From: Candidatus Omnitrophota bacterium
Lineage (GTDB): Bacteria; Omnitrophota; Omnitrophia; Omnitrophales; Aquincolibacteriaceae
Direction of reading: 5' to 3'
Length of the DNA stretch: 64,000 nucleotides
Assembly: GCA_041674705.1 (NCBI GenBank)
Contig: JBAYVF010000006.1
Span: forward strand, 23,241-87,240
Part shown: one piece after another, positions 10,181 through 62,053 of the stretch
How positions within the stretch are numbered: position 1 is the first letter of the stretch
Layout of the letters: each line of letters starts with the position of its first letter
Notes under the pieces: generated by a model
The model's input: the letters and a program-made list of their open reading frames with translations, nothing else
Told to the model about the DNA's origin: nothing
The model's database searches: none
Position numbers and translations under genes: made by a program

Positions 10181-10208
10181 TTGACATCAGAAGTTTCTTT
10201 GCTATCCT
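10181..10208 (+). promoter_or_regulatory. candidate sigma70-type promoter (TTGACA-16-TATCCT)
   Basis: Perfect -35 with an A/T-rich upstream tract. The -10 coincides with the first bases of the 86-bp repeat copy. Confidence 0.4.
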
Positions 10209-10285
10209 TGTCTCGATTTATTTTCTAAAGGGTGACAAGGATTGCCCCAATTTCAAATTTGTTGAAATTGATAGGTATTGGGACT
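10201..10285 (+). repeat. CCCAAT-family dispersed element, full-length diverged copy
   Basis: ...ggattgccccaatttcaaatttgttgaaattgataggtattgggact is collinear with the copies at 43130-43215 (reverse complement) and 51267-51352. Confidence 0.8.
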
Positions 10286-10494
10286 AGAATTCCTCTCGCC
10301 GAGCAAATTTGAAAAAATTTTCGATAAGAAAAATAAAAGGCCCATGATTTTTAAAGATTTGATTCGCCGGCAGCGGGAAAAAAGAAGCGAGAGTCTTCGC
10401 GTGAGTTCGAAGCCCGGAAAAAAGAAAACGTAATCTTTTAAAGCGTCGATCCATCCCCATACAAAATAAGCTCAATGAAAAAATGGGATGTTCG

Positions 10495-10510
10495 ATACTA
10501 TATGTAGTGG
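10495..10510 (+). promoter_or_regulatory. NrdR-box-like palindrome 1
   Basis: atACTATATgTAGTGg compared with the published NrdR box consensus acaCwAtATaTwGtgt, upstream of an RNR gene. Confidence 0.5.
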
Positions 10511-10526
10511 ATGGGCATAACGCAAT

Positions 10527-10542
10527 CACCCACATATAGTGA
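10527..10542 (+). promoter_or_regulatory. NrdR-box-like palindrome 2
   Basis: cacCCACATATAGTGa is the inverted partner of box 1. The centres are about 33 bp apart. It lies 44 nt before the nrdJ ATG. Confidence 0.45.
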
Positions 10543-10585
10543 TGTTTAATAAGCTTTTAAAAAGTTTAAGGAGAGATAACGCTTT

Positions 10586-32899: not shown

Positions 32900-33349
32900 A
32901 TGACTCCTATGCAAGGAAAACGGACCGAACGCGTGGCATCCCTCCTTCAAATGGAATTGGGCACGCTTATTCTGGAAAGGATCAAAGATCCGCGTCTGGG
33001 TTTTGTGACCGTCATGCATGTCAAGATCACCCCGGACCTCAAGTCTGCCGTAGTGTTCATCAGCGTGATGGGGGATAAGAAGAAAAAAGAAGAAACGCTC
33101 AAGGTCCTCGAGCGCGCGGCGGGGTTCCTTCAGCACGAGGTGGGTCTGGCGATCCAGATGCGTTACACGCCGAAGCTTCAATTTGAGTTGGACGACTCTC
33201 TCGACAAGGATTTTGAAATAGGCCAGGTTATTCACAAGATCGAAGAAAAGGACAAGCCCAATTCTCCATCAGAAAATTCAAAGGTTAATTGGACTAGCCC
33301 TGGCGACCTTCTATCAGAAAAAAATCAAAGCCAGGACAAGGCCGCTTAA
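32900..33349 (+). CDS. rbfA: ribosome-binding factor A
   Basis: KRTERVASLLQMELGTLILERIKDPRLGFVTV...V.I.PDLK.A.V..S. The start could be ATG 32900 or 32909. The C-terminal 30 aa come from the repeat element. Confidence 0.85.
   Translation: MTPMQGKRTERVASLLQMELGTLILERIKDPRLGFVTVMHVKITPDLKSAVVFISVMGDKKKKEETLKVLERAAGFLQHEVGLAIQMRYTPKLQFELDDSLDKDFEIGQVIHKIEEKDKPNSPSENSKVNWTSPGDLLSEKNQSQDKAA
33251..33340 (+). repeat. 90-nt CCCAAT-family element translated in frame at the rbfA 3' end
   Basis: 75/90 nt identical (hand alignment, no gaps) to 39090-39179 in ftsK. Encodes DKPNSPSENSKVNWTSPGDLLSEKNQSQDK. Confidence 0.85.
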
Positions 33350-38354: not shown

Positions 38355-40853
38355 ATGAAAAAAGAACGAGTCAACGAGATCTGGGGCGTTTTTTTCCTTT
38401 TGCTGGGGCTCTTCACTTTTGCGAGCCTTTTTTTCTATCGCGCTGAGGATATCGCGTTCTATTCTTCACATCCCACTTTCCCCGTCGCCAATTACGCCGG
38501 AGTTTTTGGCGCCTATGTTGCTTTCGGGCTTTTTCTTGTTTTTGGCGTGAGCGCCTTCGTCATCCCCTTTGTTTTTCTTCTTTGGGCAGAATGTTTTTTT
38601 CTTCAAAAAGTTCCCGAGCGGAAACTCTTCAAATTTATCGGGCTGGCCATTGCGCTTCTCTCGATCGCAACGATCGTGGCGATCACCGTCGGGCCCCAGC
38701 AACGCTTCGTCTATGGCGGCGCGTTCGGGTACGTGGCAGGCAACCATCTTCTGCGCTATTTCGGACGCTTGGGAAGCTATATTCTGGCCGGTTCTGCACT
38801 TTTACTCTCGCTTCTTCTCGCGACAGATTTTCTTCTCTATCCCTTATTTCGCGCGATCCTCGGGAAACTCCAAGCGCTCTTCTCAGGCGTTGCCGAACGG
38901 ATCTCTCGCGAGCCTCAAAAAAATGGAAATGCGGCTCTTTTGAAAAAGGAGCAGGAGCGACAAGCGAGGGATTTGAAACAGCGGGAGAGGGAAAAGGAAA
39001 AAGCGAAAGAAAAAGAAAAATCGGCGCCGCGAATGCCGGACATGCCGCTCAAGATCAAGACCTATCAACCGACCGCGGGCATGGCGGATGATAAGCCCAA
39101 TTCTCAATCAAAAAATTCAAAGGGTAATTGGACTAATCTTGGCAACCTTCAGTCAGAAGAAAATAGAGGCCAGGATAAGACGAAGGCTGAAAAGAAGCCC
39201 AAAGAAGAAGCGAAAGAGGCTGTGAAGAAACAGGTGCCGCAGCTTGCGGCTCCAAAAACGGAAGTTTCGAGCAAGGAAAAGCCATCAGAAAAGGGTTCCA
39301 GCGGCGAGGCCACCTTTAAAGGCGTGATCGGTTCCCAGATCAAGGCTGATGCGAATTATCAATTTCCCTCCGTAGATCTCTTGAAAAGACCGAAGGAAGA
39401 TGTGGTGGGTGGAGGCGATGATCTCGAAGCCAATTCCAAAGCCATCGAAGCGACGCTTGCCGAATTCGAGATCGAGGTCAAGGTGGTCGAGGTAGAGCAG
39501 GGGCCGAAGATCACGCTTTATGAGATCCTTCCGGCACCGGGCGTTCGCGCCAATTCGATCGCGGCCTATGAAGATGATATCGCGATGGCGCTTAAGGCCA
39601 CCAGCATCCGGATGATCATTCCGATCCCCGGGAAACAGACGATCGGGATCGAAGTCCCGAATTCTGTATCCCGGCCGATCCTGGTACGCGAGATGATCGA
39701 GAATCCTGATTTTCGTTCTCAGAAATGCATGCTGCCTTTGATCCTCGGGAAAGACACGAGCGGAAGGCCGATGATCGCGGACCTGGCGGCTATGCCCCAC
39801 ATTCTGATCGCCGGAACCACGGGAAGCGGCAAAACTGTTTGCATTAATTCCATTATCGCCGGGTTTCTTTATCACTGTACGCCTTCTCAGTTAAAACTTG
39901 TTATGGTGGATCCGAAAATGGTCGAGCTCGCCGTTTACAACAAGATCCCGCACATGCTTTCGCCCGTGGTGACGGATGTGCGCAAGGCGTCCAACACGCT
40001 CAACTGGGTCGTGATGGAAATGGAAAAACGGTACCGTCTTTTTGCTACGGTGGGTGTAAGAAATATTGTTGGGTTTAACACCCGCGAACTTTCCGAAGAA
40101 GGCGTGAAACAGGTTGAGGCGGCGGGGGATTCCGAAAATGTAATTCCGGCCTCGATCCCTTACATTGTGGTCATCATCGACGAGCTTGCGGATCTCATGC
40201 TGGTGGCGCAGGATAAGGTTGAGACCGCCATCACACGCCTTGCCCAGCTTTCCCGCGCGGTCGGTATCCACTTGATCCTTGCGACGCAGCGACCCTCAGT
40301 GGATGTCATCACGGGCGTTATCAAAGCGAATTTTCCGGCCCGTGTTGCGTTCAAAGTAGCCTCCGTCGTAGACTCCCGAACGATTCTCGATAACAAAGGG
40401 GCTGATAAGTTACTGGGCCGCGGGGATATGCTTTTTGTGCAACCTGGAAGCGATAATATGATCCGGGGACAAGCGCCGCTCATTGAAGACGAAGAGATCA
40501 ATCGCATCGTGGCTTTTACTGCGACTCAGGGAAAACCGGAATACCATTCCGAGATCCAGTCCGTGCAGAATAGCTCCATGCCGGGAGGCGCCGGAGAAAA
40601 AGATGATATGTTCGAAGAAGCGAAGCGCATTGTTCTCACCACGCGTCAGGCTTCGACCTCCTATTTACAGCGACGCTTGAGACTCGGGTATTCGCGGGCG
40701 GCCCGTGTTGTGGATCAACTGGAGGCTGCAGGCGTGATCGGCCCACAAGACGGAGCGAAGCCTCGCGAGATCCTTTTGCCGAACCCGACCGGAGACTACG
40801 CTGAAGCCACTCCCGTTGATGCTGGCGCCGAGGACGAAGACGATAACGTCTAG
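38355..40853 (+). CDS. ftsK: DNA translocase FtsK
   Basis: Four N-terminal TM helices, a low-complexity linker, motor domain GTTGSGKTV, IIDELADL, ATQRPSVDVITG, and gamma wHTH YLQRRLRLGYSRAARVVDQLE. Confidence 0.95.
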   Translation: MKKERVNEIWGVFFLLLGLFTFASLFFYRAEDIAFYSSHPTFPVANYAGVFGAYVAFGLFLVFGVSAFVIPFVFLLWAECFFLQKVPERKLFKFIGLAIALLSIATIVAITVGPQQRFVYGGAFGYVAGNHLLRYFGRLGSYILAGSALLLSLLLATDFLLYPLFRAILGKLQALFSGVAERISREPQKNGNAALLKKEQERQARDLKQREREKEKAKEKEKSAPRMPDMPLKIKTYQPTAGMADDKPNSQSKNSKGNWTNLGNLQSEENRGQDKTKAEKKPKEEAKEAVKKQVPQLAAPKTEVSSKEKPSEKGSSGEATFKGVIGSQIKADANYQFPSVDLLKRPKEDVVGGGDDLEANSKAIEATLAEFEIEVKVVEVEQGPKITLYEILPAPGVRANSIAAYEDDIAMALKATSIRMIIPIPGKQTIGIEVPNSVSRPILVREMIENPDFRSQKCMLPLILGKDTSGRPMIADLAAMPHILIAGTTGSGKTVCINSIIAGFLYHCTPSQLKLVMVDPKMVELAVYNKIPHMLSPVVTDVRKASNTLNWVVMEMEKRYRLFATVGVRNIVGFNTRELSEEGVKQVEAAGDSENVIPASIPYIVVIIDELADLMLVAQDKVETAITRLAQLSRAVGIHLILATQRPSVDVITGVIKANFPARVAFKVASVVDSRTILDNKGADKLLGRGDMLFVQPGSDNMIRGQAPLIEDEEINRIVAFTATQGKPEYHSEIQSVQNSSMPGGAGEKDDMFEEAKRIVLTTRQASTSYLQRRLRLGYSRAARVVDQLEAAGVIGPQDGAKPREILLPNPTGDYAEATPVDAGAEDEDDNV
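39090..39179 (+). repeat. 90-nt CCCAAT-family element translated in frame in the ftsK linker
   Basis: Encodes DKPNSQSKNSKGNWTNLGNLQSEENRGQDK. 20/30 aa and 75/90 nt identical to the rbfA copy, in the same reading frame of the element. Confidence 0.85.
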
Positions 40854-40897: not shown

Positions 40898-41533
40898 GTG
40901 ATACAAACTCCCGGAAACGAAAAAAAAGTCCTGCTTCATTCGTGTTGCGCTCCGTGTTCCTGCTCGATCATTCAGCGTATGGTGGAGAACGGCAGCGAGC
41001 CGACGGTTTATTTCTACAATCCCAATATTTACCCCAAAGAAGAATATGAGCATCGCAAACGCGAAGTCATCCGCTTTATCAAAAAAAATGGCATTCCTTT
41101 TGTCGATGCGGATTACGAGATCGATGGATGGCTTGAAGCTATAGAAGGCCATGAGAAAGACGCGGAGCGGGGAAAGCGCTGCACGATCTGCTTTGAGATG
41201 CGTCTCGGGAAGGCCGCAGCTTATGCCGCAGGCAATGGCTTTAAAGTGTTTGCGACCAGCCTCGGCATTTCCCGCTGGAAAGATCTCGCACAAGTGAATC
41301 GCGCGGGAAAACACGCCGCCTCTTTATTTTCAGGGCTTGTCTATTGGGATCACAACTGGAGGCTCTCAGGCGGGCAGGAACAGATGGAAAGGATCGCGAA
41401 AGAAGAGAATTTTTACCGTCAAAATTATTGCGGCTGCCTTTATTCCCTCGAGGAATCTGCGAAGCGGTCCCAATACTCATCAATTTCCATGAAGGGGAAA
41501 TTGGGGCAGCCCAAGTCGCCATCAATGAAATAA
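40898..41533 (+). CDS. queH: epoxyqueuosine reductase QueH (DUF208)
   Basis: LLHSCCAPCS, C.IC...R, and YCGCLYS Cys pattern. Confidence 0.8.
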   Translation: MIQTPGNEKKVLLHSCCAPCSCSIIQRMVENGSEPTVYFYNPNIYPKEEYEHRKREVIRFIKKNGIPFVDADYEIDGWLEAIEGHEKDAERGKRCTICFEMRLGKAAAYAAGNGFKVFATSLGISRWKDLAQVNRAGKHAASLFSGLVYWDHNWRLSGGQEQMERIAKEENFYRQNYCGCLYSLEESAKRSQYSSISMKGKLGQPKSPSMK

Positions 41534-41573
41534 AAATATAGACTTGGGCGGAATCTTGCCAAAAAATCCGCGA

Positions 41574-41651
41574 CCCTGGCTTTTATTTTTAATTTATGGT
41601 AGCCAGGGCCGCCCCAATCTCAGCTACGCTTCGATTGATTGGTATTGGGAC
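41574..41651. repeat. composite hairpins related to CCCAAT family, between the convergent queH and DUF190 genes
   Basis: ccctggct-...-agccaggg followed by ccccaatctcagctacgcttcgattgattggtattgggac. Confidence 0.55.
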
Positions 41652-41653
41652 GG

Positions 41654-41986
41654 TCAGCCTGCCCTGTAGAGAAGGACGTTCGCTTTTTCGAGAGTCACGA
41701 GGCCTTCCTTGACCATCGGATCCAAAAGCGGCAGGAATTTCGCGATCTTCTCCTCGCTGTCCACGATCTCGATCACAATAGGAAGATCCTCGGAAAGGCG
41801 CAGGATCTTTGTCGTGTGCAAGTGGCTTTTGCAGCCAAATCCCATAAAACCTTTAATCGCAGTAGCGCCCGCCAATCCTTCTTTTTTAGCAAGGAGAACG
41901 ATCGCTTCATAAAGGGGACGGCCTTCCCACTTGTCTGCTTCGCCGATAAAAACCCTTAACAGTTTTCCGTCTTCAGGTATTTTCAT
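41654..41986 (-). CDS. DUF190 domain protein (CrcB-associated)
   Basis: 110 aa. LLRVFIGE.DKWEGRPLYEAIV..A...GLAGATA..G..GFG. Confidence 0.75.
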   Translation of the reverse strand: MKIPEDGKLLRVFIGEADKWEGRPLYEAIVLLAKKEGLAGATAIKGFMGFGCKSHLHTTKILRLSEDLPIVIEIVDSEEKIAKFLPLLDPMVKEGLVTLEKANVLLYRAG

Positions 41987-42526: not shown

Positions 42527-43129
42527 TTATTTTTTTCCGCCAAAAGGCTTGGCGGATCCGCCTCCGGCGGACTTACCGACGGTGAAGGCCTGGCCGAGGA
42601 ACTTGCCGGTCGCATAATAAGCGCTTGTGCCCGGATCGAACATGAAAGCTTTCATTTTTTCCGGATCGGGAAAGCCTTTGGAGTTGAGCGCCGACTCTTC
42701 CACCTTGATATCCTTGATCTCGCCGATGAATTGCGTGTGAATGCCGAGCTTGTGCGTTTCTTTCAGCGTGCATTCCAGGACGAAAGGAAATTCCTTGATG
42801 TAGGGTGCGTCGACGAGATCGCTTTTGACGGGCGTCAACCCCGTAGCCTTAAATTTATCTTCGGTCTTCCCGGAAACGATCCCGAAATAATCCGCTTCTT
42901 TCATATGTTTTTCGGAAGGAATATTTACGGTGAAGGCTTTTTTCGCCAGAATGTTCTCATAGGTCTTGCGATGATCGCGTATCGAGACCGTCACGCAAGG
43001 CGGTTCGGAGCAGGCGATGCCGCCCCAGGCCACGTTCATGGCGTTGGGAGCGCCTTTCGCGTCATAAGAACAGACGATCAGGACAGGAGTCGGAAAGAGA
43101 AGCGTTTTGGTACCGAGCGATTTTTTCAT
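42527..43129 (-). CDS. flavin reductase-like FMN-binding domain protein
   Basis: LLFPTPVLIVCSYDAKGAPNAMNVAWGG split-barrel pattern. ATG 43129 is preferred, because the track extension MKGIGT is read from the repeat element. Confidence 0.75.
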   Translation of the reverse strand: MKKSLGTKTLLFPTPVLIVCSYDAKGAPNAMNVAWGGIACSEPPCVTVSIRDHRKTYENILAKKAFTVNIPSEKHMKEADYFGIVSGKTEDKFKATGLTPVKSDLVDAPYIKEFPFVLECTLKETHKLGIHTQFIGEIKDIKVEESALNSKGFPDPEKMKAFMFDPGTSAYYATGKFLGQAFTVGKSAGGGSAKPFGGKK

Positions 43130-43215
43130 AGTCCCAATACCTTTCAATTTTTGCGAAGCAGAAATTGGGGCAATCCCAACTGCCCTTTATGTAAAGAAAT
43201 CAAAAGTTGGGATAG
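43130..43215 (-). repeat. CCCAAT-family 86-bp element, copy abutting the flavin reductase start codon
   Basis: Its reverse complement is 77/86 identical (hand alignment) to 51267-51352. It ends ...gaaaggtattgggact directly before the ATG. Confidence 0.9.
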
Positions 43216-43231
43216 ACGCCACCAAAAAAGT

Positions 43232-43978
43232 TTAACGGCCTTCGATATTGAGCACGTGCGTTTTCTTTTTCAGGAAACGGAAAACAAGATAGATCACAAG
43301 GGAGGTCCCAAAAAAGATCCACCAAAAAGGCGCGATCTTATGGTCGGGTTTCGTAAAAAGGTCCGCGGCGATCCCGAGCACGGTGAGGGCAGAGATCATG
43401 CCAAATTGTGTCGAATGCTCCCGGCGCAACACGGTCTTCCACGCGTACGGGAGTTCCGGTTTTTGAAACCCCGAGAATTTTGGAATAAAGACGGGCGTTT
43501 TCAAGGACCATTCCACGAATGTCTGCCCAAATTTCTGGCGCAGGAATTCTTCTTCCGTGAAAATGATGCGCTCGTAGAAGATCCAGAAAATAGCAATTCC
43601 TGCGAGCGTGAACCACCAAACCTGGATAAAGAGTAGAAGTCCAAGGCAAATGAGGAAATTTCCAAGATAAAGAGGGTTGCGGACCACCGAATACAAACCC
43701 TTGGTGTTCAGACTTTCCGCGACCTGGGTTTGCGTGTTGCGTCCCGAAGTTCCTCTTGGAACATAACCGGCCACGAGGCAGCGCACGATGAACCCCGAAA
43801 GGGAAATGAGGATGCAGATCGCTTTCCAGAGGCTGCCGGAAAAACCGCTGAAGAATGGATGAGAATATTGGGGATCCAGGAGCGCTGCGACGACCAAGGG
43901 GCCTACCAGGAGAGGAAGGTAACTTCGGTGACGGAAGAGGAACGCGCCTTGTTTTTCATAAGTTTCTTTGAGAGCCAT
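43232..43978 (-). CDS. isoprenylcysteine carboxyl methyltransferase (ICMT/PEMT-like) family membrane protein
   Basis: Multi-TM. LNTKGLYSVVRNPLYLGNFLI...ERIIFTEEEFL block. Confidence 0.65.
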   Translation of the reverse strand: MALKETYEKQGAFLFRHRSYLPLLVGPLVVAALLDPQYSHPFFSGFSGSLWKAICILISLSGFIVRCLVAGYVPRGTSGRNTQTQVAESLNTKGLYSVVRNPLYLGNFLICLGLLLFIQVWWFTLAGIAIFWIFYERIIFTEEEFLRQKFGQTFVEWSLKTPVFIPKFSGFQKPELPYAWKTVLRREHSTQFGMISALTVLGIAADLFTKPDHKIAPFWWIFFGTSLVIYLVFRFLKKKTHVLNIEGR

Positions 43979-44076
43979 AACGACCTTTCAGGTTTTACCG
44001 CTATTTTAAAATATCAACAATGAAACAACCGATCCAACGATTTTATTCTAATTCTTCTTTCAGGAAAAAGACAGTT

Positions 44077-44721
44077 TTAAGGCTTTTTCCTCGAACTTGC
44101 CCCGTGAGACGGGGTGAACAACCATTCCCTTAAGATCGGGAGAAAAGAAAGAACAATCACGACCAGGATAACCCAGTGAACTTTTTTTTCAATGTTCGGG
44201 ATCGTGCGGCCGAGAGAAAACCCCAGGAGCGTCATACTCGCGATCCAGCCCAACCCACCGCCGATACTGTAAGCGAGGAATTTTCGGTAGGGCATCCGGC
44301 CGACGCCGGCCACGGTCGGGGCAAAGGTTCGGACGATCGGGACAAAGCGCGCCAGGATGAGTGTTTTTGCGCCATATTTATCGTAAAACTTTTGTGTCCG
44401 GGTCAAATGGTCCTTATGAAAGAAAAAAGAATCGGTACGGCTGAAAAGCTTCGGGCCGAAATGACGCCCAAGCCAGTAACCGGTATTGTCGCCGGCGATT
44501 GCGGCCAGGGCGAGCAAAGGGATAAGGATTTCGATCCGGAGCGCGCCTTCTACTGCCGCGAAAAGACCGGCCGTGACAAGCAGCGAATCGCCCGGGAGGA
44601 AAAAACCGGCGAGAAGCCCTGTTTCGGCATAAATGATGATCACAAGGACTGTGTAACCCCCCCAGCGGATAAGGTCCTGGAAGTGATAAAGCTTAGAAAA
44701 AAATTCGTGTAACCATTCCAT
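44077..44721 (-). CDS. DedA family membrane protein
   Basis: FLPGDSLLVTAG and RFVPIVRTFAPTVAGVGRM motifs. Confidence 0.85.
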   Translation of the reverse strand: MEWLHEFFSKLYHFQDLIRWGGYTVLVIIIYAETGLLAGFFLPGDSLLVTAGLFAAVEGALRIEILIPLLALAAIAGDNTGYWLGRHFGPKLFSRTDSFFFHKDHLTRTQKFYDKYGAKTLILARFVPIVRTFAPTVAGVGRMPYRKFLAYSIGGGLGWIASMTLLGFSLGRTIPNIEKKVHWVILVVIVLSFLPILREWLFTPSHGASSRKKP

Positions 44722-44739
44722 GAATGCCCCTTGTCGCAG

Positions 44740-46365
44740 CTATTTGATTGAGAGGATCTTATTTTCTTGAGTCGTGATGGTATCAAGTTTTCCCCATAAT
44801 TGGAAGAATAGTTCGGGCCTGAAACGGAAAAGCGGTTCAAGGCCTTGGGAGGTTGAGGCGTAAAAGATTTTTTCGTTTATTAATTTCTGTAAAACTTCAA
44901 CGCCCGTGGCCGATCGGCGATCCCGCTTCGAGGCGATCGCCAGCGCCTCGGAAAGGGGGATTGTTTTTGAGGCAAACGAGATGCCTTTCAGGAAGTTCAG
45001 GATACGGGTCGTGATAAGAAGCGTGTAAAGATCCTCACGCTTGAAATCCCGGGTTTCGATCGCCATGGCCGTGAGGCGCGCTGTGAAGACATCGGTTTCG
45101 GAAGGGGCATCAAAATGCCTGGCGATAGGCGAATGCGGAATAAGATAAAAAGGGGAAGCGCCCAGAAGCATAGGGAGCTTGGCGTTAAAAAGGAGTGTCT
45201 TGATCATGGAGGCAAGCGTGTCGCCCGGGAGTCCCAGGATCTGATAAGCAACGACCTTAAAGCCGAGCGCTGCTGCGTTTTTTAAAACTTCGCGGTATTT
45301 CGCGAGCGGGTTGGGCCTCTGGACTGTCTTAAGTAAAGCCGTGTTTGTGCTTACAAGCGAAAGGTTCAGATGTGTGAATCCCGCTTGTCGCATAAGTTTG
45401 AGGATGCTGCGGTCGAGCGTCCAGTAGCAGACTCCGTTCATGGCGAGGAGCTGGATATCTTTTAGGGGGAATTCCCGGATAAGTTGTTTACACAGCCCGG
45501 TCATTTCCTTCCGGTCGAACGTAAGGTTGTCATCTTCGAAATCAAAGACACGATAACCTTCGTTGTAACGCTGCTTGATCTCGGTGAGAATGCTTTTGGC
45601 GGAGCGCCTGCGGCATTTATGGCCGAACGTCTTGTGGACCGAACAAAAAGCGCAGCGGTAAGGGCATCCGCGTGACGTGATGATGAAACAAAGGGGCTTC
45701 TTCTCAAAAAGATAATGATTCTGAGGAAGGTCAGAAAAATCGGGGAATGGAAGCGCTTCGATCGGGAAGTTCTCTTTTCGCGGATTTAAAATCAATCGCC
45801 CGCGCTTTTTATATCCAAGATTCGGGATCTTTGCGAAATTTTTGCCACTCTTTAAAACCTTCAAAAATTCCACGAACGGCTTTTCGCCTTCGCCCTGAAT
45901 TACGAAGTCGATCGCCGGATGCGCGAGCATGGTTTCCGGCATGGCGGACACGTGAGCACCTCCGATCAGAATGGGAACATCCCAACGCTTTTTGATCGCT
46001 TCCGCGCAGCGGAAAACCTCGCGATGATAAGGGGCAAAAAGAGCTGCGATGCCGACAAGATCCGGCTTTTCTTTCGCAACTTCTTCAGCGATCGTCTCAA
46101 AATCCGCGCCGAAGTGATAATAGTGATGGAAAGTCGAGAAAGGGCTTTTGTCATCTTTGGAATAATAATCTTTTAAATAGGCGAGCTCTTTCGGGAGCGG
46201 GATCGTTTTCCGGCCCCAACCGTGGTGGTAATCTCTGATCGTGACCCGGACTCCTGGGATATGTTTTTGCGCCGCGGCTTTGAGATAGGCCAGGCCGATC
46301 GGTTGGAGACGGATGTCCGTATTGTAGAAATCCTCGACCGGAGGTTGTAAAAGCAGGACCTTCAT
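44740..46365 (-). CDS. B12-binding domain-containing radical SAM protein
   Basis: N-terminal MKVLLLQPP...GLAYL...DLVGI..GG.H (cobalamin-binding-like), then SRGCPYRCAFCS. ATG 46365 gives an ATGA overlap with the upstream gene. The track start is 46395. Confidence 0.8.
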   Translation of the reverse strand: MKVLLLQPPVEDFYNTDIRLQPIGLAYLKAAAQKHIPGVRVTIRDYHHGWGRKTIPLPKELAYLKDYYSKDDKSPFSTFHHYYHFGADFETIAEEVAKEKPDLVGIAALFAPYHREVFRCAEAIKKRWDVPILIGGAHVSAMPETMLAHPAIDFVIQGEGEKPFVEFLKVLKSGKNFAKIPNLGYKKRGRLILNPRKENFPIEALPFPDFSDLPQNHYLFEKKPLCFIITSRGCPYRCAFCSVHKTFGHKCRRRSAKSILTEIKQRYNEGYRVFDFEDDNLTFDRKEMTGLCKQLIREFPLKDIQLLAMNGVCYWTLDRSILKLMRQAGFTHLNLSLVSTNTALLKTVQRPNPLAKYREVLKNAAALGFKVVAYQILGLPGDTLASMIKTLLFNAKLPMLLGASPFYLIPHSPIARHFDAPSETDVFTARLTAMAIETRDFKREDLYTLLITTRILNFLKGISFASKTIPLSEALAIASKRDRRSATGVEVLQKLINEKIFYASTSQGLEPLFRFRPELFFQLWGKLDTITTQENKILSIK

Positions 46366-47096
46366 CGCTTCTTCGGGGAGACCCTGAGCAGGCAATCTTC
46401 CAGATCTTCTGGAAGCGGAGATTCAAGCGTGAGCAATTTGCCGCTTGTCGGATGCGGGAAGATCAGCCGCCAGGCGTGAAGAAACATCCGGTGAAGACCG
46501 AGCGCCGCCTTCAGTTCCTTGTTGAGCGTAAAATTTCCGTAGAGCCGGTCGCCGGCCACCGGATGACCGTGATAGGCCGACTGCACGCGGATCTGGTGCG
46601 TTTTTCCGGTCAAAAGTTCGATCTCCAGAAGCGATAGATTGAACTTCGGAAAATATTCTTTCATTTTATAATTCAAAAATGCGTTGGGCCGGCCGAGCGT
46701 GCTGATCGCTGAACGGATCCCTCCCTCGGACCGTCGTTCCATCATGTTATCGCGCCATATCCCGTGCGCCGGCATCGGCTTTCTTGAAACAAGAGCAAGA
46801 TAATTTTTTTTGACGGCTCGTTCCTCGAATGCTTTTCGGCAAGCCGCGACGCTTTTCTTGTTCTTGGCCGCCAGAAGCACTCCGGAGGTGTCTTGATCGA
46901 GGCGATGGATGAGCCAGATCGGGCCTTGAGGTGTTTGAAATCGACGATCCCCAAGATCATAAGGACCTTCGAAAGCGGAGGAGAGGCTTTTGGATCCAGG
47001 ATTTGGATGTGAGAGGACCCCTTCCGGCTTGTCAATGACGAGCAGATCGGCGTCCTCAAAGAGGATCGGGCATTGCGTAAAAAAGGAGTTTGCCAT
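46362..47096 (-). CDS. RluA family pseudouridine synthase
   Basis: HRLDQDTSGVLLAAK catalytic block and THQIRVQ. The start is ATG 47096 or GTG 47129. Confidence 0.8.
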   Translation of the reverse strand: MANSFFTQCPILFEDADLLVIDKPEGVLSHPNPGSKSLSSAFEGPYDLGDRRFQTPQGPIWLIHRLDQDTSGVLLAAKNKKSVAACRKAFEERAVKKNYLALVSRKPMPAHGIWRDNMMERRSEGGIRSAISTLGRPNAFLNYKMKEYFPKFNLSLLEIELLTGKTHQIRVQSAYHGHPVAGDRLYGNFTLNKELKAALGLHRMFLHAWRLIFPHPTSGKLLTLESPLPEDLEDCLLRVSPKKR

Positions 47097-47121
47097 TAGG
47101 AAAAGGACCTTTTTAAATGCG

Positions 47122-47189
47122 CCCGCCACAAAGCGCTGGCGGGTCCGTCCGACAGCGCGAGCGGACGGGTCCGCCGCGCTGTTTGGCGG
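47122..47189 (-). other. three tandem short GC hairpins, each with GCGC in the loop
   Basis: On the minus strand: ccgcc-aaacagcgc-ggcgg, ccgtccg-ctcgcgctgt-cggacgg, cccgcc-agcgctttgt-ggcggg. They lie between the small ORF stop and the rluA-family start. There is no U-tract. Confidence 0.4.
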
Positions 47190-47190
47190 A

Positions 47191-47274
47191 TTAGCTGCAG
47201 CAGCAACCGCAGCGGGATTTTTTCGCTGTTTTCTTAGTTTTCTTTTTTGCGGCTTTTTTTGCTTTTTTGGCCAT
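47191..47274 (-). CDS. unannotated small ORF, 27 aa, polybasic with C-terminal Cys cluster (MAKKAKKAAKKKTKKTAKKSRCGCCCS)
   Basis: Below the ORF-track length cut-off. ATG is preceded by AAAGGAG plus a 5-nt spacer. It lies 26 nt downstream of the GDT1-like stop on the same strand. Confidence 0.55.
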   Translation of the reverse strand: MAKKAKKAAKKKTKKTAKKSRCGCCCS

Positions 47275-47300
47275 GACGACTCCTTTGGGTTGAATTGCGG

Positions 47301-47573
47301 TTAAATTTTATTGAAGAACATCAACATCCCGATGACCACGAACGCTGTGGCGCCGCCATAACGTATGAACTCCGGTTTGACGTATTTTGCCAGGAGAGTC
47401 CCGAGAATGACCGAGATCAGCGTGACAAGCGCATAGCCCGCGATCGATCCCAGGAATACGGACAAAGGTTTCCCGGTCTTGGAGGCCATGGTGATCCCCA
47501 CGAGTTGCGTCTTATCGGCAAGTTCCGCAAAGAAGATAGCGCTTAAGGTTGCTAAAAAAATTTTCCAATCCAT
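47301..47573 (-). CDS. UPF0016 (GDT1/TMEM165-like) single-repeat cation transporter subunit
   Basis: 90 aa, 3 TM, with the E-x-G-D-K-T-type motif as FAELADKTQL. Confidence 0.7.
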   Translation of the reverse strand: MDWKIFLATLSAIFFAELADKTQLVGITMASKTGKPLSVFLGSIAGYALVTLISVILGTLLAKYVKPEFIRYGGATAFVVIGMLMFFNKI

Positions 47574-47643
47574 AAAAGTCTCCTTGAAAGGTGATTGACA
47601 AAAGGAATTGTACCATAAAGTACTCGTCGCGCACTGAGCGGAC

Positions 47644-50199
47644 TTAATATCCGTATTTCTTTACGTACCAGGACTTGATCTTTTGCGTCAGGGTCAGATA
47701 GGCGAGGACGATCACAAGGACCGAGAAACCGTAACCCCAGGTCGGCGGAACAAAGCCGAAGAATTTTCCCCAAGGGGAAAGCGTGACGGCAAAAGCGGTT
47801 CCGACGATACAAAGCGACATTTGGACCAGGAACCGGCTAGGGCGGCTTTCGAGGAACGGTATCTTGGCGGTTCGGATGATATAAATAATAAAGGTTTGAG
47901 TGCAGAGCGACTCCAGGAACCAGCCGGTATGGAAAAATTCCTGCGAGGCATGGAAAACAAAAAGCAAGATCCCGAAAGTCAAAAAATCAAAGAGGGAACT
48001 GATCGGGCCAAAGATGAGCATGAACCGGCGGATCGCGGCGATATCCCAACCTTTGGGAGTTTTCAGATATTCATCATCCACCTTATCGGTCGGGATGGCG
48101 ATCTGGGAGACGTCGTAAAGAAAATTATTGAACAAGATCTGGATCGGAAGCATCGGAAGAAAGGGAAGGAAAAGGCTCGCGCCGGTCATGCTGATCATAT
48201 TCCCGAAATTAGAACTCGAACCCATCTTGATGTATTTCATGATGTTCCCGAAGGTTCTGCGACCTTCCAACACGCCGTCCTCAAGGACCAGGAGGCTTTT
48301 TTCAAGCAGGATAATGTCCGCGGATTCTTTGGCGATATCGACGGCGTTATTGACAGAAATGCCGACGTCCGAGGTTTTAAGGGCCGGCGCGTCGTTGATG
48401 CCGTCTCCCAAGTATCCGACGATCTGCCCGTTCTCATGAAGCGCATGAATAACACGTTCCTTCTGAAGCGGGGAGAGGCGTGCGAAGACGGTGGTTTTTT
48501 TGACCAGTTCCCGGAGCGTGATATCGCTGGCGGCCTCCAGCGTATCACCCGTGACGATCTCGTGGACATCCAACCCGACATGGCTGCAGATCTTTTTGGT
48601 GACTAGTTCGTTGTCGCCAGTCAGCACTTTGAATTCGATGCCAAGATTTTTCAGGCGATGGATCGTTTCCTTGGCGCTGGGTTTCGGCGGGTCAAGGAAC
48701 GCGAGGTAGCCGATCAGGACGAGGTTCTTTTCATCGTCCTTGCTGTAAACGCTTTTTTTCTCCGGCATGTTTTTATAGGCCACGGCCAGGACCCGGAAGC
48801 CGTCGGCGCTCAAAGAGTCGTATTCTTCCTTAAGATCGGAAAGGATCAAATTTTCCATTTCCAGGATCTCGCCGTCGAGTTCGTAATGACTGCAGCGTTT
48901 AAAGATCTCTTCGGGGGCGCCTTTGGAAATAAGCGTTTGTTTTCCCTCGGCTTCAACAATGACCGACATGATCCTGCGCGAAAAATCGAACGGGATCTCA
49001 TCCTCTTTTTTATATTGTTCGGTCAGCACCAGTTCGTGCTTCAGGATCGCGCGGTCGAGCAAGTTCTTGAGGCCGGTCTGATAGAAACTGTTGATGAAGG
49101 CGTATTTGAGGACCTCTTCGTTTTCAGCCCGGACCACGTCGCAGTGACGTTCGAGCACGACATCATCCAGCGTGAGGGTGCCGGTCTTGTCCGTACAGAT
49201 CACGTTCATGGCGCCCAGGTTCTGGATCGAATTGAGACGCTTTACGATCACCTTTTTTTTGGACATAGCGATCGCTCCTTTGGAGAGATTGATCGTCACG
49301 AGCATCGGCAGCATTTCTGGCGTCAAGCCGACGGCGACGGCAAGAGAAAAAAGCAAAGCCGTTTTCCAATCGCCTTTGGTGAACAGATTGATCACAAAGA
49401 TCGCCGCGACCATGACCATCATGACTTTGATCATAAGCCAAACGAAACGATTCACCCCTTTGTCGAAACTGGTTTGCGTGCGGATATTCGCCAAGCGCCT
49501 CGAAACTTCTCCAAATTGAGTGTCGATGCCGGTTTTAATCACCAGGCCCAGAGCTGTGCCGCTCACCACGCTGGATCCCATGAACGCGATATTGGTCAGG
49601 CTGGTGACGGAAAGGCCTTGGGTGTTGATCGGGGCCGCGATTTTTTCAATGGGGAAGGATTCTCCTGTCAGGGAGGACTGATTGATGAACAGGTCTTTAC
49701 AGGAAAGGATGCGGAGGTCGGCAGGGATCATGTCGCCTGCGTAAAGGTCCACGATATCGCCCGGGACGATCTCTCGCATTTTGATCTCGGTTGGTTTTCC
49801 ATCCCGGTTCACGGTGGCGGTGGCGCGTACGAGTTCGCTCAGCTTTTCGGCCTCTTTATTGGACTTGTATTCCTGGAAAAAGGACAAAAAAACGCTGAGG
49901 AAGATCATGAGCAGGACCAGCAACGCCTGGATATCTTCTCCGAAGCAGAGAGAAAATGTGGCGATGACCAAAAGGATGATAACGAGCGGATCCGTAAATT
50001 TCTGGAGAAGCTGCCACAACGCGGTCCGCTTCTTTTTTTTGGCCGGTTCGTTGTAACCGTGTTTTTCAATGCGTAAAGCGGCTTCCTCTTCGGAGAGGCC
50101 TCCCCACGAGGTCATGAATTCTTTGAGGAGCTCCTCGGCGGTTGCCGCGCTAAAAAAAGAAACCGGCTTTTGATTTTTGGGATTCTGAGGATTTGGCAT
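47644..50199 (-). CDS. mgtA: magnesium-translocating P-type ATPase
   Basis: ICTDKTGTLT, TGDN, GDGINDAPALK. 851 aa with MgtA-like N-terminus and TM layout. Confidence 0.85.
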   Translation of the reverse strand: MPNPQNPKNQKPVSFFSAATAEELLKEFMTSWGGLSEEEAALRIEKHGYNEPAKKKKRTALWQLLQKFTDPLVIILLVIATFSLCFGEDIQALLVLLMIFLSVFLSFFQEYKSNKEAEKLSELVRATATVNRDGKPTEIKMREIVPGDIVDLYAGDMIPADLRILSCKDLFINQSSLTGESFPIEKIAAPINTQGLSVTSLTNIAFMGSSVVSGTALGLVIKTGIDTQFGEVSRRLANIRTQTSFDKGVNRFVWLMIKVMMVMVAAIFVINLFTKGDWKTALLFSLAVAVGLTPEMLPMLVTINLSKGAIAMSKKKVIVKRLNSIQNLGAMNVICTDKTGTLTLDDVVLERHCDVVRAENEEVLKYAFINSFYQTGLKNLLDRAILKHELVLTEQYKKEDEIPFDFSRRIMSVIVEAEGKQTLISKGAPEEIFKRCSHYELDGEILEMENLILSDLKEEYDSLSADGFRVLAVAYKNMPEKKSVYSKDDEKNLVLIGYLAFLDPPKPSAKETIHRLKNLGIEFKVLTGDNELVTKKICSHVGLDVHEIVTGDTLEAASDITLRELVKKTTVFARLSPLQKERVIHALHENGQIVGYLGDGINDAPALKTSDVGISVNNAVDIAKESADIILLEKSLLVLEDGVLEGRRTFGNIMKYIKMGSSSNFGNMISMTGASLFLPFLPMLPIQILFNNFLYDVSQIAIPTDKVDDEYLKTPKGWDIAAIRRFMLIFGPISSLFDFLTFGILLFVFHASQEFFHTGWFLESLCTQTFIIYIIRTAKIPFLESRPSRFLVQMSLCIVGTAFAVTLSPWGKFFGFVPPTWGYGFSVLVIVLAYLTLTQKIKSWYVKKYGY

Positions 50200-50207
50200 G
50201 AGGAAGT

Positions 50208-51089
50208 CTAACTCATTAAAATATTAATCACAATCCCCGCGGTAAGGCTTACGAGAACGAGGAGGCCCATGATGAAAGCGGTTTCTTTGCGGTCCTTGTT
50301 CTCTTGAAAAAGGACCAGTATCCCCAGGCCGCCGCTCGCTGAAAGGCCCGCAATGGCCGAACCGAAGGTGATGGCGCCTTTCAAATAAACCTCGGTGATC
50401 GCGACGGAGGCAGCGCAATTCGGGATAAGCCCGACCAGAGTCGCGATCAAGGGCTGGAAAAAAGTTCCCGAGAAAAAGACGCGCTCCAGGCCCGCTTCTC
50501 CAAATTTCGCGACCACAAAGCCGATCGCCAGAGAAACCGCAAAAATAAAAAACAGAACCTTCAGGGTGTGCTTAAGCGGAAAAAGGAAAAAAGTTTTCCA
50601 GCGGGGGATCCCCTGGCCGTGTGTGTGGCAATCGCAGGATCGGTACCCTCCCTCGGGAACAATGGGGGCGTGCGGAACATGCGGCTCCCCAGAGGAATTT
50701 CTTTTAAAGATAAGATCGACCGCGTATCCGGCGATCGTCGCAAGAACCACCTTTGTGAGTAAAAGACTAAGAACCAAGGGGGCTGCGTTGTGTTGGGCGA
50801 GAATCACCGGGATCGCTTCATCCGAAGTTGAAATAAAAACGGCGAGCAGCGTTCCTCGCGAAATACACCGGCGGGTATAAAGCGTGGCGGCGACCACCGA
50901 GAAACCGCATTGAGGTATACAGCCTAAAAGCGCACCCAAAAAAGGCGCCACGCCCATTTTGTGGCTGATCTTTTCTCCGAGGAAAGATTCCGACTTGTTC
51001 TCAAGAAACTCGAGCGCGATATAAATGCCCAAAAGAAGCGGCAGCATCCCCATCGTGTCTTTGAGTGTTTCCATCAAGATTTGATTCAT
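50208..51089 (-). CDS. polytopic membrane permease, possibly a metal-ion exporter family
   Basis: About 10 TM helices. GCIPQCGFS and TSDEAIPV motifs, two homologous halves. The family assignment is from memory only. Confidence 0.35.
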   Translation of the reverse strand: MNQILMETLKDTMGMLPLLLGIYIALEFLENKSESFLGEKISHKMGVAPFLGALLGCIPQCGFSVVAATLYTRRCISRGTLLAVFISTSDEAIPVILAQHNAAPLVLSLLLTKVVLATIAGYAVDLIFKRNSSGEPHVPHAPIVPEGGYRSCDCHTHGQGIPRWKTFFLFPLKHTLKVLFFIFAVSLAIGFVVAKFGEAGLERVFFSGTFFQPLIATLVGLIPNCAASVAITEVYLKGAITFGSAIAGLSASGGLGILVLFQENKDRKETAFIMGLLVLVSLTAGIVINILMS

Positions 51090-51144
51090 GAATGAGGATA
51101 GTACTTTGGAATATTGGCAAAATCAACAATCCAGAATTATTTGA

Positions 51145-51222
51145 CTGGATGGAGGAGGGCGGACGGAGAATGGTGTTTGGTTTTGGCGTCGCCCGCCATC
51201 CACCATCCGTCTCCCGTTTTTT
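51145..51222. repeat. palindromic element, GGATGG family, followed by T6
   Basis: ggatggaggagggcgg (51147-51162) pairs with ccgccatccaccatcc (51193-51208), 14/16. The loop contains gtttggtttt, as in the intragenic copy at 28565-28650. Confidence 0.7.
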
Positions 51223-51266
51223 AGTCCCGCTTGCGGTTGCCAGTTGATTCTGCCAGAATAGCTCTG

Positions 51267-51352
51267 TTATCCCAACTTTAAATTTCTTTGCATAAAGGAT
51301 AGTTGAGATTGCCCCAATTTCTACTTCGTAAAAATTGAAAGGTATTGGGACT
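51267..51352 (+). repeat. CCCAAT-family 86-bp element, copy abutting the 51353 start codon
   Basis: Inverted partner of 43130-43215. It ends ...gaaaggtattgggact directly before the ATG. Confidence 0.9.
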
Positions 51353-51550
51353 ATGAAAAATTATGTCTGGAAGTATCTTCTTCCCGGGATTGCCCTCATA
51401 GCATGCGCGTTCTGGGTCGGGACGCTGCCCAACATGGTTTTTTCTTTCCTCGGTTTTCTCTCGTTCTTTTTGGCCGGCGTAGCCCTTATCATAGAAGGAC
51501 GGAAACAATGCTTTTCCTGTAAAGGGAAAGGCACGGAGAACGGCGAGTGA
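51353..51550 (+). CDS. small membrane protein (65 aa, 2 TM, C-terminal CFSC)
   Basis: ATG 51353 is preferred, because the track extension MKGIGT is read from the repeat. No recognisable family. Confidence 0.45.
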   Translation: MKNYVWKYLLPGIALIACAFWVGTLPNMVFSFLGFLSFFLAGVALIIEGRKQCFSCKGKGTENGE

Positions 51551-61817: not shown

Positions 61818-61827
61818 CATCTCGTTC

Positions 61828-61866
61828 GTCCCAATTTGCAATGAAATTTAAAATGAAAATTGGGAC
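61828..61866. repeat. CCCAAT-type hairpin directly after tuf
   Basis: gtcccaattt-gcaatgaaatttaaaatga-aaattgggac. Confidence 0.55.
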
Positions 61867-62053
61867 AGCACTGATTTCCGATTAGAAACTAATAGAAAAT
61901 CAGGCGGCCACAAATCCTAGCATTTTTTGGCGAAGCCCTGCAGGCTGTAAGACGTTTATTTTCGCCGTAAGAGGTCTTACAAGCCGAAATCATTATTTGA
62001 AAGCCGTGTTTTTTCCGCGGTTTTTTTAAGACAAAGGAAAAGGTTTTATTTCG

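Follow-up and report, generated by a model that had tools for sequence, protein, structure and literature searches.

The Correia (NEMIS) elements of Neisseria are small, non-coding and highly repeated, duplicate a TA and lie near gene boundaries. Reviews report that they create promoters and that co-transcription turns them into structured RNA (PMC2229807, PMC3049150). Insertion at TA with a 2-bp duplication is a hallmark of the IS630/Tc1-mariner type (PMC2229807, PMC2170065), and the CIR RNA of Caulobacter and Brucella consists of two stem-loop arms and a linker (PMC2229807). Here we describe an 80-83 bp repeat in a stretch of 64,000 nucleotides from a Candidatus Omnitrophota bacterium (assembly GCA_041674705.1, contig JBAYVF010000006.1, positions 23,241 to 87,240), referred to as the window. 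The repeat appears to be a non-autonomous mobile DNA element resembling a miniature inverted-repeat transposable element (MITE), which has repeatedly been co-opted as a portable translation-initiation leader. Its nearest counterparts are, in behaviour, the bacterial MITEs that duplicate TA (Correia, RUP, Nezha) and, in fold, two-arm repeats such as CIR. It belongs with the small non-autonomous mobile repeats, though membership in one of the named families is not proven.

The Omnitrophota element has in common with Correia the small size, the lack of coding sequence, the high copy number, the TA duplication and the location near gene boundaries, and the promoter creation reported for Correia can be likened to the promoter-like junctions of the Omnitrophota copy at nrdJ. 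Correia elements, however, measure 105-155 bp, have terminal inverted repeats of 26 bp and contain an IHF site, whereas the Omnitrophota element measures 80-83 bp, its terminal repeats reach about 6 nt at most, it folds into two separate covarying hairpins and its 3′ end would provide Shine-Dalgarno (SD) and start-codon context; in sequence the two are not similar. RUP of Streptococcus pneumoniae and Nezha of cyanobacteria, MITEs ascribed to IS630-family transposases, are likewise non-autonomous and insert at TA with a 2-bp duplication. Their terminal repeats are shared with an identified insertion sequence (IS), whereas the fetched loci yielded no partner IS for the Omnitrophota element, which also duplicates CA, CG, GA, TG, AG and GG and whose left terminus varies by subfamily. 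CIR has the same plan of first hairpin (P1), linker and second hairpin (P2), and ERIC of enterobacteria exerts orientation-dependent effects on neighbouring mRNAs; neither is related to the Omnitrophota element in sequence, and for neither has placement on start codons or supply of an SD been reported, unlike here. The REP/BIME-RAYT and IS200/IS605-derived elements are also short structured repeats that occur in mosaic arrays and conserve hairpins instead of terminal repeats. Such conservation is found here as well, with P1 and P2 both covarying. Those families, in contrast, depend on Y1/HUH enzymes and are marked by a fixed tetra- or pentanucleotide and the lack of a target duplication, whereas the Omnitrophota element is flanked by 2-bp duplications of varying sequence. 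Rickettsia palindromic elements are small mobile repeats tolerated at or in genes with function preserved, as is the Omnitrophota element, but they lie in frame within coding sequence, whereas the latter mainly replaces the initiation region 5′ of the ATG. Taken together, the element departs from these systems in four respects, namely the lack of long terminal repeats, two covarying hairpins of which one includes the left terminus, a non-strict TA target and a start-codon coupling through a portable SD.

An earlier note on the window had described an inverted pair of an 86-bp element with 77 of 86 positions identical. The reverse complement of 43130-43215 and the stretch 51267-51352 indeed give this count in an ungapped alignment. 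Both copies terminate in ...AAATTGAAAGGTATTGGGAC-TA-TG, in which A/TG belongs to the start codon, and share the 3′ end ...GAAAGGTATTGGGAC in front of the TA-TG. A third, diverged copy noted at 10201-10285 is real and has 63-64 identities to each of the other two, its left junction reading TTGACA-16-TATCCT. The gene content around and inside the pair (flavin reductase-crcB-DUF190 on one side, ICMT-like to permease between the copies, a small membrane protein on the other side) is also as described there. A covariance model (CM) built from 51 family members was run unfiltered over the window and brought the total to at least five solid copies of the 80-83 bp repeat, the fourth and fifth being absent from the training set. 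With these two extra copies and several weaker relatives the 'pair' amounts to two members of a repeat family. The element proper comprises 43131-43212 (-), 51270-51351 (+) and 10205-10284 (+), each lying between a duplicated TA. The features are the following:

43131-43212 (-): left copy, 82 bp, TCCCAAC...TTGGGAC, between the ICMT-like and flavin reductase genes; CM 103.9 bits
43213-43214 (-): left TA of the duplication at the left copy, from the comparison of filled and empty sites
43129-43130 (-): right TA of the duplication at the left copy, its A opening the flavin reductase ATG
43140-43145 (-): GAAAGG of the left copy, SD-like, 10 nt 5′ of the flavin reductase ATG
43215-43226 (-): decayed remnant of the native flavin reductase SD, TGGTGGCG (relatives: GAGGTGAC), from the comparison with loci L096, L098 and L100
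51270-51351 (+): right copy, 82 bp, on the start codon of a 65-aa membrane-protein gene; CM 96.4 bits
51268-51269 (+): left TA of the duplication at the right copy, preceded by T, from the flank comparison
51352-51353 (+): right TA of the duplication at the right copy, its A opening the membrane-protein ATG
51337-51342 (+): GAAAGG of the right copy, SD-like
10205-10284 (+): third copy, 80 bp, TCCTTGTC/GACAAGGA P1 subfamily, with GATAGG, in the -10 box of nrdJ; CM 92.8 bits
10181-10208 (+): hybrid promoter-like site of flanking TTGACA, 16 nt and TATCCT (duplicated TA plus the element's first 4 nt)
10262-10290 (+): hybrid promoter-like site of the element's TTGAAA, 17 nt and the original TAGAAT -10 box
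41467-41549 (-) (model match 41463-41556): fourth copy, more diverged, with CG on either side; CM 76.1 bits, E = 7e-19
41573-41651 (+) (model match 41566-41655): fifth copy, head-to-head with the fourth and just beyond the DUF190 stop; CM 65.8 bits, E = 5e-16
39090-39183 (-), 33251-33344 (-) and 61824-61912: weaker relatives of the element found with the covariance model

For all three strong window copies empty orthologous sites were found in relatives. At the left copy, three element-free relatives (L096, L098 and L100; flavin reductase protein identity 93, 82 and 79%) have only 16-21 nt from the ICMT-like stop to the ATG and read ...GAGGTGAC-CTATG, ...GAGGTGAC-TTATG and ...GAGGTGCC-ACATG, whereas the window reads ...TGGTGGCGTC-TA-[82 bp]-TA-TG. 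The filled site ..GGCGTC-TA-[element]-TA-TGAAAAAA of the window can be set directly against the empty site ..GGTGACC-TA-TGAAAAAA of L096, and the 16-nt spacer in front of the flavin reductase gene contains one TA only, that in CTATG. At the right copy the empty sites are ..AGAATAGCGCCATCATG (L102) and ..GAGCCCGTTATG (L103), compared with ...AGCTCTGT-TA-[82 bp]-TA-TG in the window; a further orthologue of the membrane-protein gene (L142) bears a copy very similar to the right copy. The relatives of the nrdJ locus (L105-L107) have an intact TTGACA-16-TAGAAT, and their mnmE-nrdJ spacer measures 358 nt versus 441 nt in the window, where the copy occupies the TA of the TAGAAT. The left, right and nrdJ copies are three independent insertions. 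Furthermore, the DUF190/QueH junction in the relatives of the flavin reductase locus lacks both the fourth and the fifth copy, and one relative carries an ATG-coupled copy of its own before a trm112-like gene that is not found in the window. With copies present only in the relative and others only in the window, the insertion sets evidently differ among close lineages.

Two side observations concern these loci. The nrdJ leader contains the near-palindromic boxes ACTATATGTAGTG (10497-10509) and CACATATAGTGAT (10531-10543), about 34 bp apart and kept in three relatives, which we take to resemble tandem NrdR operator boxes. The fourth copy is antisense to the 3′ end of the QueH open reading frame (ORF; 40979-41533, +), whose last ~22 codons enter it, while in relatives the stop codons of QueH and DUF190 overlap with no element between them; the C-terminus of QueH in the window lineage may thus be encoded by the repeat.

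The flanks define the target. GGGAC is followed by TA in 132 of 158 copies, and the base in front of the left TA is C in 44 cases, T in 22 and A in 1. About 22 copies have a right flank other than TA, and in 11 of these the left flank repeats that non-TA dinucleotide (CA four times, CG three times, furthermore GA, TG, AG and GG), the probability of a chance match being 1/16 per case. Since these 11 flanks match and the right window copy has TTA on its left and CTA on its right side, the 2-bp duplication is real, and the element inserts with a 2-bp target-site duplication. A 3-bp duplication of CTA was considered as well and is ruled out by the TTA/CTA of the right copy together with the matched CA/CA and CG/CG flanks. 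Of the features of a MITE, the element has the small size (80-83 bp), the lack of coding capacity, the many dispersed copies and a target-site duplication, here of 2 bp.

The element is organized as 5′-YCC..P1 5′ arm..~27-nt loop..P1 3′ arm-TTGCCCCA-P2 hairpin-TGAWAGGTATTGGGAC-3′, its 5′ end doubling as the 5′ arm of P1. In an alignment of 51 sequences 94% of the cells of P1 and P2 are paired, and both sides are changed in 135 cells compared with 43 ± 6.6 after shuffling; none of 500 shuffles reached as high a value. For comparison, sliding the partners by 1-3 columns leaves only 20-48% paired. P1 occurs as CCCAAC/GTTGGG, CCCGAC/GTCGGG, CCTGAC/GTCAGG, CCTGGC/GCCAGG, CCTTGTC/GACAAGG and in other forms, and in one subfamily the P2 helix is exchanged wholesale for AUCCCGCC/GGCGGGAU. 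Both internal hairpins are real. Of the pairings proposed in the earlier note, tcccaac/gttggga (P1) and caatttc/gaaattg (P2) thus covary strongly, while cccaat/attggg is invariant and gives no covariation signal. Neither the linker TTGCCCCA nor the tail GGTATTGGGAC varies among the 51 sequences, an observation of low weight, as the scan pattern fixed these bases. The TCCCAAC subfamily has terminal inverted repeats of about 6 nt (TCCCAA...TTGGGA); copies with the left ends TCCTTGTC, TCCTGAC and CCCTCGCC keep only YCC of this terminal repeat and are still flanked by duplications. The core-like CCCAAC/GTTGGG also brought integron attC sites into consideration, which were rejected because the AAC/GTT triplets vary, other copies having TCCTTGTC/GACAAGGA or TCCTGGC/GCCAGGA.

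The element family is specific to Candidatus Omnitrophota. Scanning one genome per species with the pattern TTGCCCCAATTTN{6,30}GGTATTGGGA matched 94 stretches, all but one chance match in 16 Candidatus Omnitrophota metagenome-assembled genomes (MAGs). In the window and these 16 MAGs nhmmer gave 180 matches and the covariance model 155 at E <= 0.001. At least 100 of the nhmmer matches belong to the MAG nzgw336, a count taken from the fetched pieces of this genome. The same MAG contains a tandem array of an 85-bp unit (4.4 copies, 100% identity) and mosaic arrays in which neighbouring units come from different subfamilies, and copies are also nested within other repeats. A blastn search of plasmid and phage collections gave no match to the element. 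With Rfam 15, at gathering and E-value thresholds, only tRNAs were obtained from the window, and no family reached threshold for the right copy, the tandem array and six related loci; the best match below threshold was DUF2815 RNA with 24.1 bits against a gathering cutoff of 41.2. In the literature searched on Omnitrophota repeats and RNA motifs and on MITEs supplying an SD or start codon, no description of the element was found.

As side observations from the arrays, a separate repeat ...TAATACCGTTCTCCATTTGATT-TTA-GGGGTTAACGGTATTGTACCGCAT...ATGCGGTAC with inverted repeats of its own occurs in nzgw336 (L003, L015, L019, L043, L050, L073 and others), either empty with a 3-4 nt centre or holding one, two or three elements (centre gaps of 87, 172 and 255 nt). 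Moreover, a composite non-coding unit of ~320-440 nt at L067 1906-2343 consists of a TCCTTGTC-type element and several hairpin modules that surround it. It has homologues in L004, L006, L012, L013, L022, L031, L033, L040, L047, L048 and L087, is repeated within and between MAGs with 79-92% identity and has no match in Rfam.

Both window copies of the pair abut true start codons, as had been claimed: the flavin reductase begins with MKKSLG in common with 15 orthologues, and the 65-aa protein with MKNY as in its orthologues. The native flavin reductase SD, GAGGTGA in three relatives, reads TGGTGGC in the window and lies 84 nt farther from the ATG. In the genome set an ATG exactly 1 nt past GGGAC was found in 15 of 158 copies, all of which open ORFs of 65-676 aa. 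This coupling depends strongly on the variant. Copies with GAAAGG or AAAAGG are ATG-coupled in 10 of 11 cases, compared with 5/147 for all other variants (Fisher p = 1.6e-11) and 3/93 for GATAGG. A metagenome scan with AAATTGAAAGGTATTGGGAC, which is blind to the sequence downstream, yielded ~51 real elements, of which 39 have an ATG at the junction, all opening ORFs. Pooled, there are 56 ATG-coupled copies in front of 24 gene groups, identified from their N-termini, among them rpmB, prfB (frameshift site included), hrcA, lpxA, lpxL-like, uvrB, plsC, dapF, recX, an ECF sigma factor, SDR, ptsI-like and trm112-like genes. GAAAGG is present on several P1/P2 backgrounds. Tabulation of distance and orientation therefore reveals an ATG-exact subset; the family as a whole shows no orientation preference. 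Using a crude ORF caller and a downstream gene within 300 nt, 35 of 69 copies in nzgw336 and 21 of 36 in the other MAGs are co-oriented with that gene, so that the element is not a general 5′ leader. Furthermore, 12 copies have a converging ORF whose TAG stop lies in their terminal CTA, and both nrdJ junctions score promoter-like.

The shared peptide MKGIGTMK, held to be spurious in the earlier note, indeed results from an in-frame TTG in the element, six codons 5′ of the ATG. By way of this TTG mechanical ORF callers extend 42527-43147 (-) and 51335-51550 (+) with MKGIGT, which is likely an annotation artefact at every start codon that the element occupies.

All these data very probably reflect the insertion of a mobile element, which today provides the context for translation initiation. 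Of the three readings offered in the earlier note this corresponds to the mobile promoter or 5′-untranslated region (UTR) cassette, which is borne out by the empty sites for three copies, the 2-bp duplication and the dispersed, tandem and nested copies in 16 MAGs, and which also fits the position of GAAAGG, 10 nt 5′ of the ATG that the duplication restores, and the promoter-like sites rebuilt at the nrdJ junctions. The following course may be proposed. A transposase acting in trans would make a 2-nt staggered cut, as deduced from the 2-bp duplication, usually at a TA after a pyrimidine. Start contexts (T-ATG), stops (TAA/TAG) and -10 boxes all contain TA, so that in short spacers, where few other TA sites would be tolerated, insertion would fall on gene signals. 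Such insertions would survive because the element restores the signal that it splits. The duplicated TA together with TG would rebuild the ATG, and the 3′ 30 nt of the element would supply the SD-like GAAAGG 10 nt before it, which on this reading of the sequence presumably acts as SD. The terminal C plus TA would rebuild the TAG stop of a converging gene. At the left junction TA plus TCCY would give a -10-like TATCCY hexamer, and the internal TTGAAA, 17 bp from the right-hand TA, could act as -35; judged from these motifs the hybrid nrdJ promoters would fire.

Several observations weigh against this reading. No transposase was found in ~0.6 Mb of fetched flanking loci, clustering of ORFs of >=100 aa per MAG gave no multi-copy protein, and outward-facing element ends 0.3-3.5 kb apart enclose ordinary genes only (PPDK, recA, regulators). 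The terminal inverted repeats are at most ~6 nt long and nearly absent in subfamilies that nevertheless duplicate their target, which is atypical for elements of DDE transposases, and the classic MITE model leaves the covariation of the hairpins unexplained. Non-standard stem pairs comprise 34 A.C versus 7 G.U and thereby favour the opposite strand. GAAAGG is only a partial SD, and its spacing of 10 nt is rather long. The orientation statistics come from a simple ORF caller. Finally, the metagenome sample was picked by GAAAGG and hence tells how often copies with GAAAGG are ATG-coupled, not how often copies in general are.

It is possible, short of probable, that the ATG-coupled copies additionally serve as a structured 5′ leader, either by protecting or insulating the mRNA or by binding a common trans-acting factor; a single module of post-transcriptional control would then serve many Omnitrophota housekeeping genes. 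This would add to the mobile-element reading. Across metagenomes and MAGs the same orthologues carry the element (rpmB five times, SDR six times, trm112-like five times), and hrcA, lpxA, uvrB, plsC and prfB recur with it too. At rpmB the copies have the unusual P2 loop CTAG in common and show compensatory P1 forms (TCCCAAC/GTTGGGA versus TCCCGAC/GTCGGGA), and at plsC three P1 pairs differ between copies with compensation; the invariance of TTGCCCCA and GGTATTGGGAC, fixed by the pattern as it is, adds little. Differing P1 types at one gene, however, could also stem from repeated insertion instead of covariation in place. The downstream genes have no common function, the uncoupled copies show no orientation bias and the stem mismatches favour the antisense strand. 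The excess of A.C, of which 15 of 34 fall at one position, argues against selection for folding of the sense mRNA and would fit the complementary strand as the folded one. Moreover, several orthologous sets keep only the last ~30 nt beside the ATG, the 5′ two-thirds having been replaced by nested insertion. P1 is thus dispensable there, and retention of ~30 nt beside the ATG is the outcome expected from selection on the translation-initiation region. In L108, L118, L119, L121, L133, L151 and L152 the 5′ two-thirds are swapped for the 3′ end of another element, and the joint ...GGGAC-CG-CTTCG... suggests nested insertion into the P2 loop of an older copy.

A more far-reaching variant, which we consider rather doubtful, is that the element may be no conventional MITE at all. 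Its ends would then be read as hairpins, it would have evolved an initiation module and -35/-10 half-sites, and the leaders would possibly constitute a phylum-wide structured 5′-UTR. If true, a hairpin-recognised element would, in compact genomes, colonise essential genes at their promoters and start codons, and a common factor would possibly be bound.

Movement as single-stranded DNA by a hairpin-recognising enzyme, as for the REP/BIME-RAYT or the palindrome-associated elements derived from IS200/IS605, appears improbable. Two covarying hairpins flanked by invariant single-stranded motifs, the absence of long terminal inverted repeats, a left terminus that varies and is yet always paired with an internal segment, the clustering of copies in mosaic arrays and the A.C over G.U excess, with the complementary strand as the folded one, would all suit such a mechanism. 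The families in question, however, leave no duplication, whereas 11 matched non-TA pairs and three empty/filled comparisons were obtained here; P1 begins at the left end, leaving no space for a guide and cleavage site of the IS608 type, and a non-exhaustive search revealed no Y1/HUH gene in the fetched loci.

That the element is an ancestral cis-regulatory RNA, i.e. a riboswitch or regulon leader of the crcB operon, the membrane-protein gene and nrdJ which was lost in relatives, is extremely unlikely. The structured architecture with covariation, the position in 5′ leaders at three window loci and the weak resemblance to DUF2815 RNA below threshold speak for it. On the other hand, duplicated dinucleotides flank the copies, some copies lie between convergent genes or antisense to genes, tandem and nested copies occur, and the relatives with 93% identity have a compact 16-nt spacer with an SD of their own. 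The suggestion of a cis-regulatory RNA in the earlier note therefore stands only as regards the covarying hairpins; as a regulon or riboswitch it is not supported, given 24 unrelated groups of downstream housekeeping genes, the ~50:50 orientation and the lack of any Rfam family at threshold. A new fluoride riboswitch of the crcB operon in particular was rejected because orthologous crcB operons lack the element and unrelated genes have it.

The remaining suggestion, that the inverted pair forms composite-transposon ends or a recombination substrate inverting or mobilising the 43.2-51.3 kb block, is not supported and has hardly any probability left: homologous recombination between two 90%-identical inverted copies 8 kb apart is physically possible, but the ICMT-like to flavin reductase junction exists element-free in the same orientation in L096-L101 and the ArsP_2/membrane-protein junction with a collinear, element-free spacer in L102 and L103, so that the two junctions came before the elements, a separate TA duplication flanks each copy as the mark of an independent single insertion, at least three further copies lie elsewhere in the window, and the inverted arrangement arises because each copy faces its own downstream gene.

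Under the preferred reading of a mobile insertion co-opted for initiation, the element splits the ribosome-binding site from the start codon and substitutes its own signal, rpmB, prfB, lpxA, uvrB and hrcA being examples of core genes with such an insertion. This shows how a selfish element may survive in a streamlined genome and subsequently reshape promoters and the initiation of translation. For the annotation of Omnitrophota MAGs it implies spurious upstream TTG starts, shared N-terminal peptides and some contig breaks at repeats. The combination of a 2-bp duplication and covarying hairpins with hardly any terminal repeats raises the question of the recognising enzyme, and the conserved 30-nt 3′ module is a candidate for a natural, context-independent ribosome-binding-site cassette.

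Some minor observations concern other features of the window. The element-like stretch at 39090-39183 (-) lies antisense within an FtsK gene (38355-40853, +; CM 31.8 bits, E = 1e-6), whose frame runs through it (...DKPNSQSKNSKGNWTNLGNLQSEENRGQDKT...). This stretch of the FtsK linker may be an in-frame insertion derived from the repeat in the style of the Rickettsia palindromic elements. Together with 33251-33344 (-) it represents a second, related repeat type, which also occurs in flanks in L036, L054, L088 and L093; in this type CTAGTCCAATTAACCTTTGAATTTTTTGATGGAGAATTGGG, with a GGAG SD-like tract, comes after a P1-like hairpin (TCCTGGC/GCCAGG). The flavin reductase (42527-43129, -) comprises 200 aa in the window, most orthologues having 188 aa; its 12 extra residues (...SAGGGSAKPFGGKK) are C-terminal and common to the closest match only.

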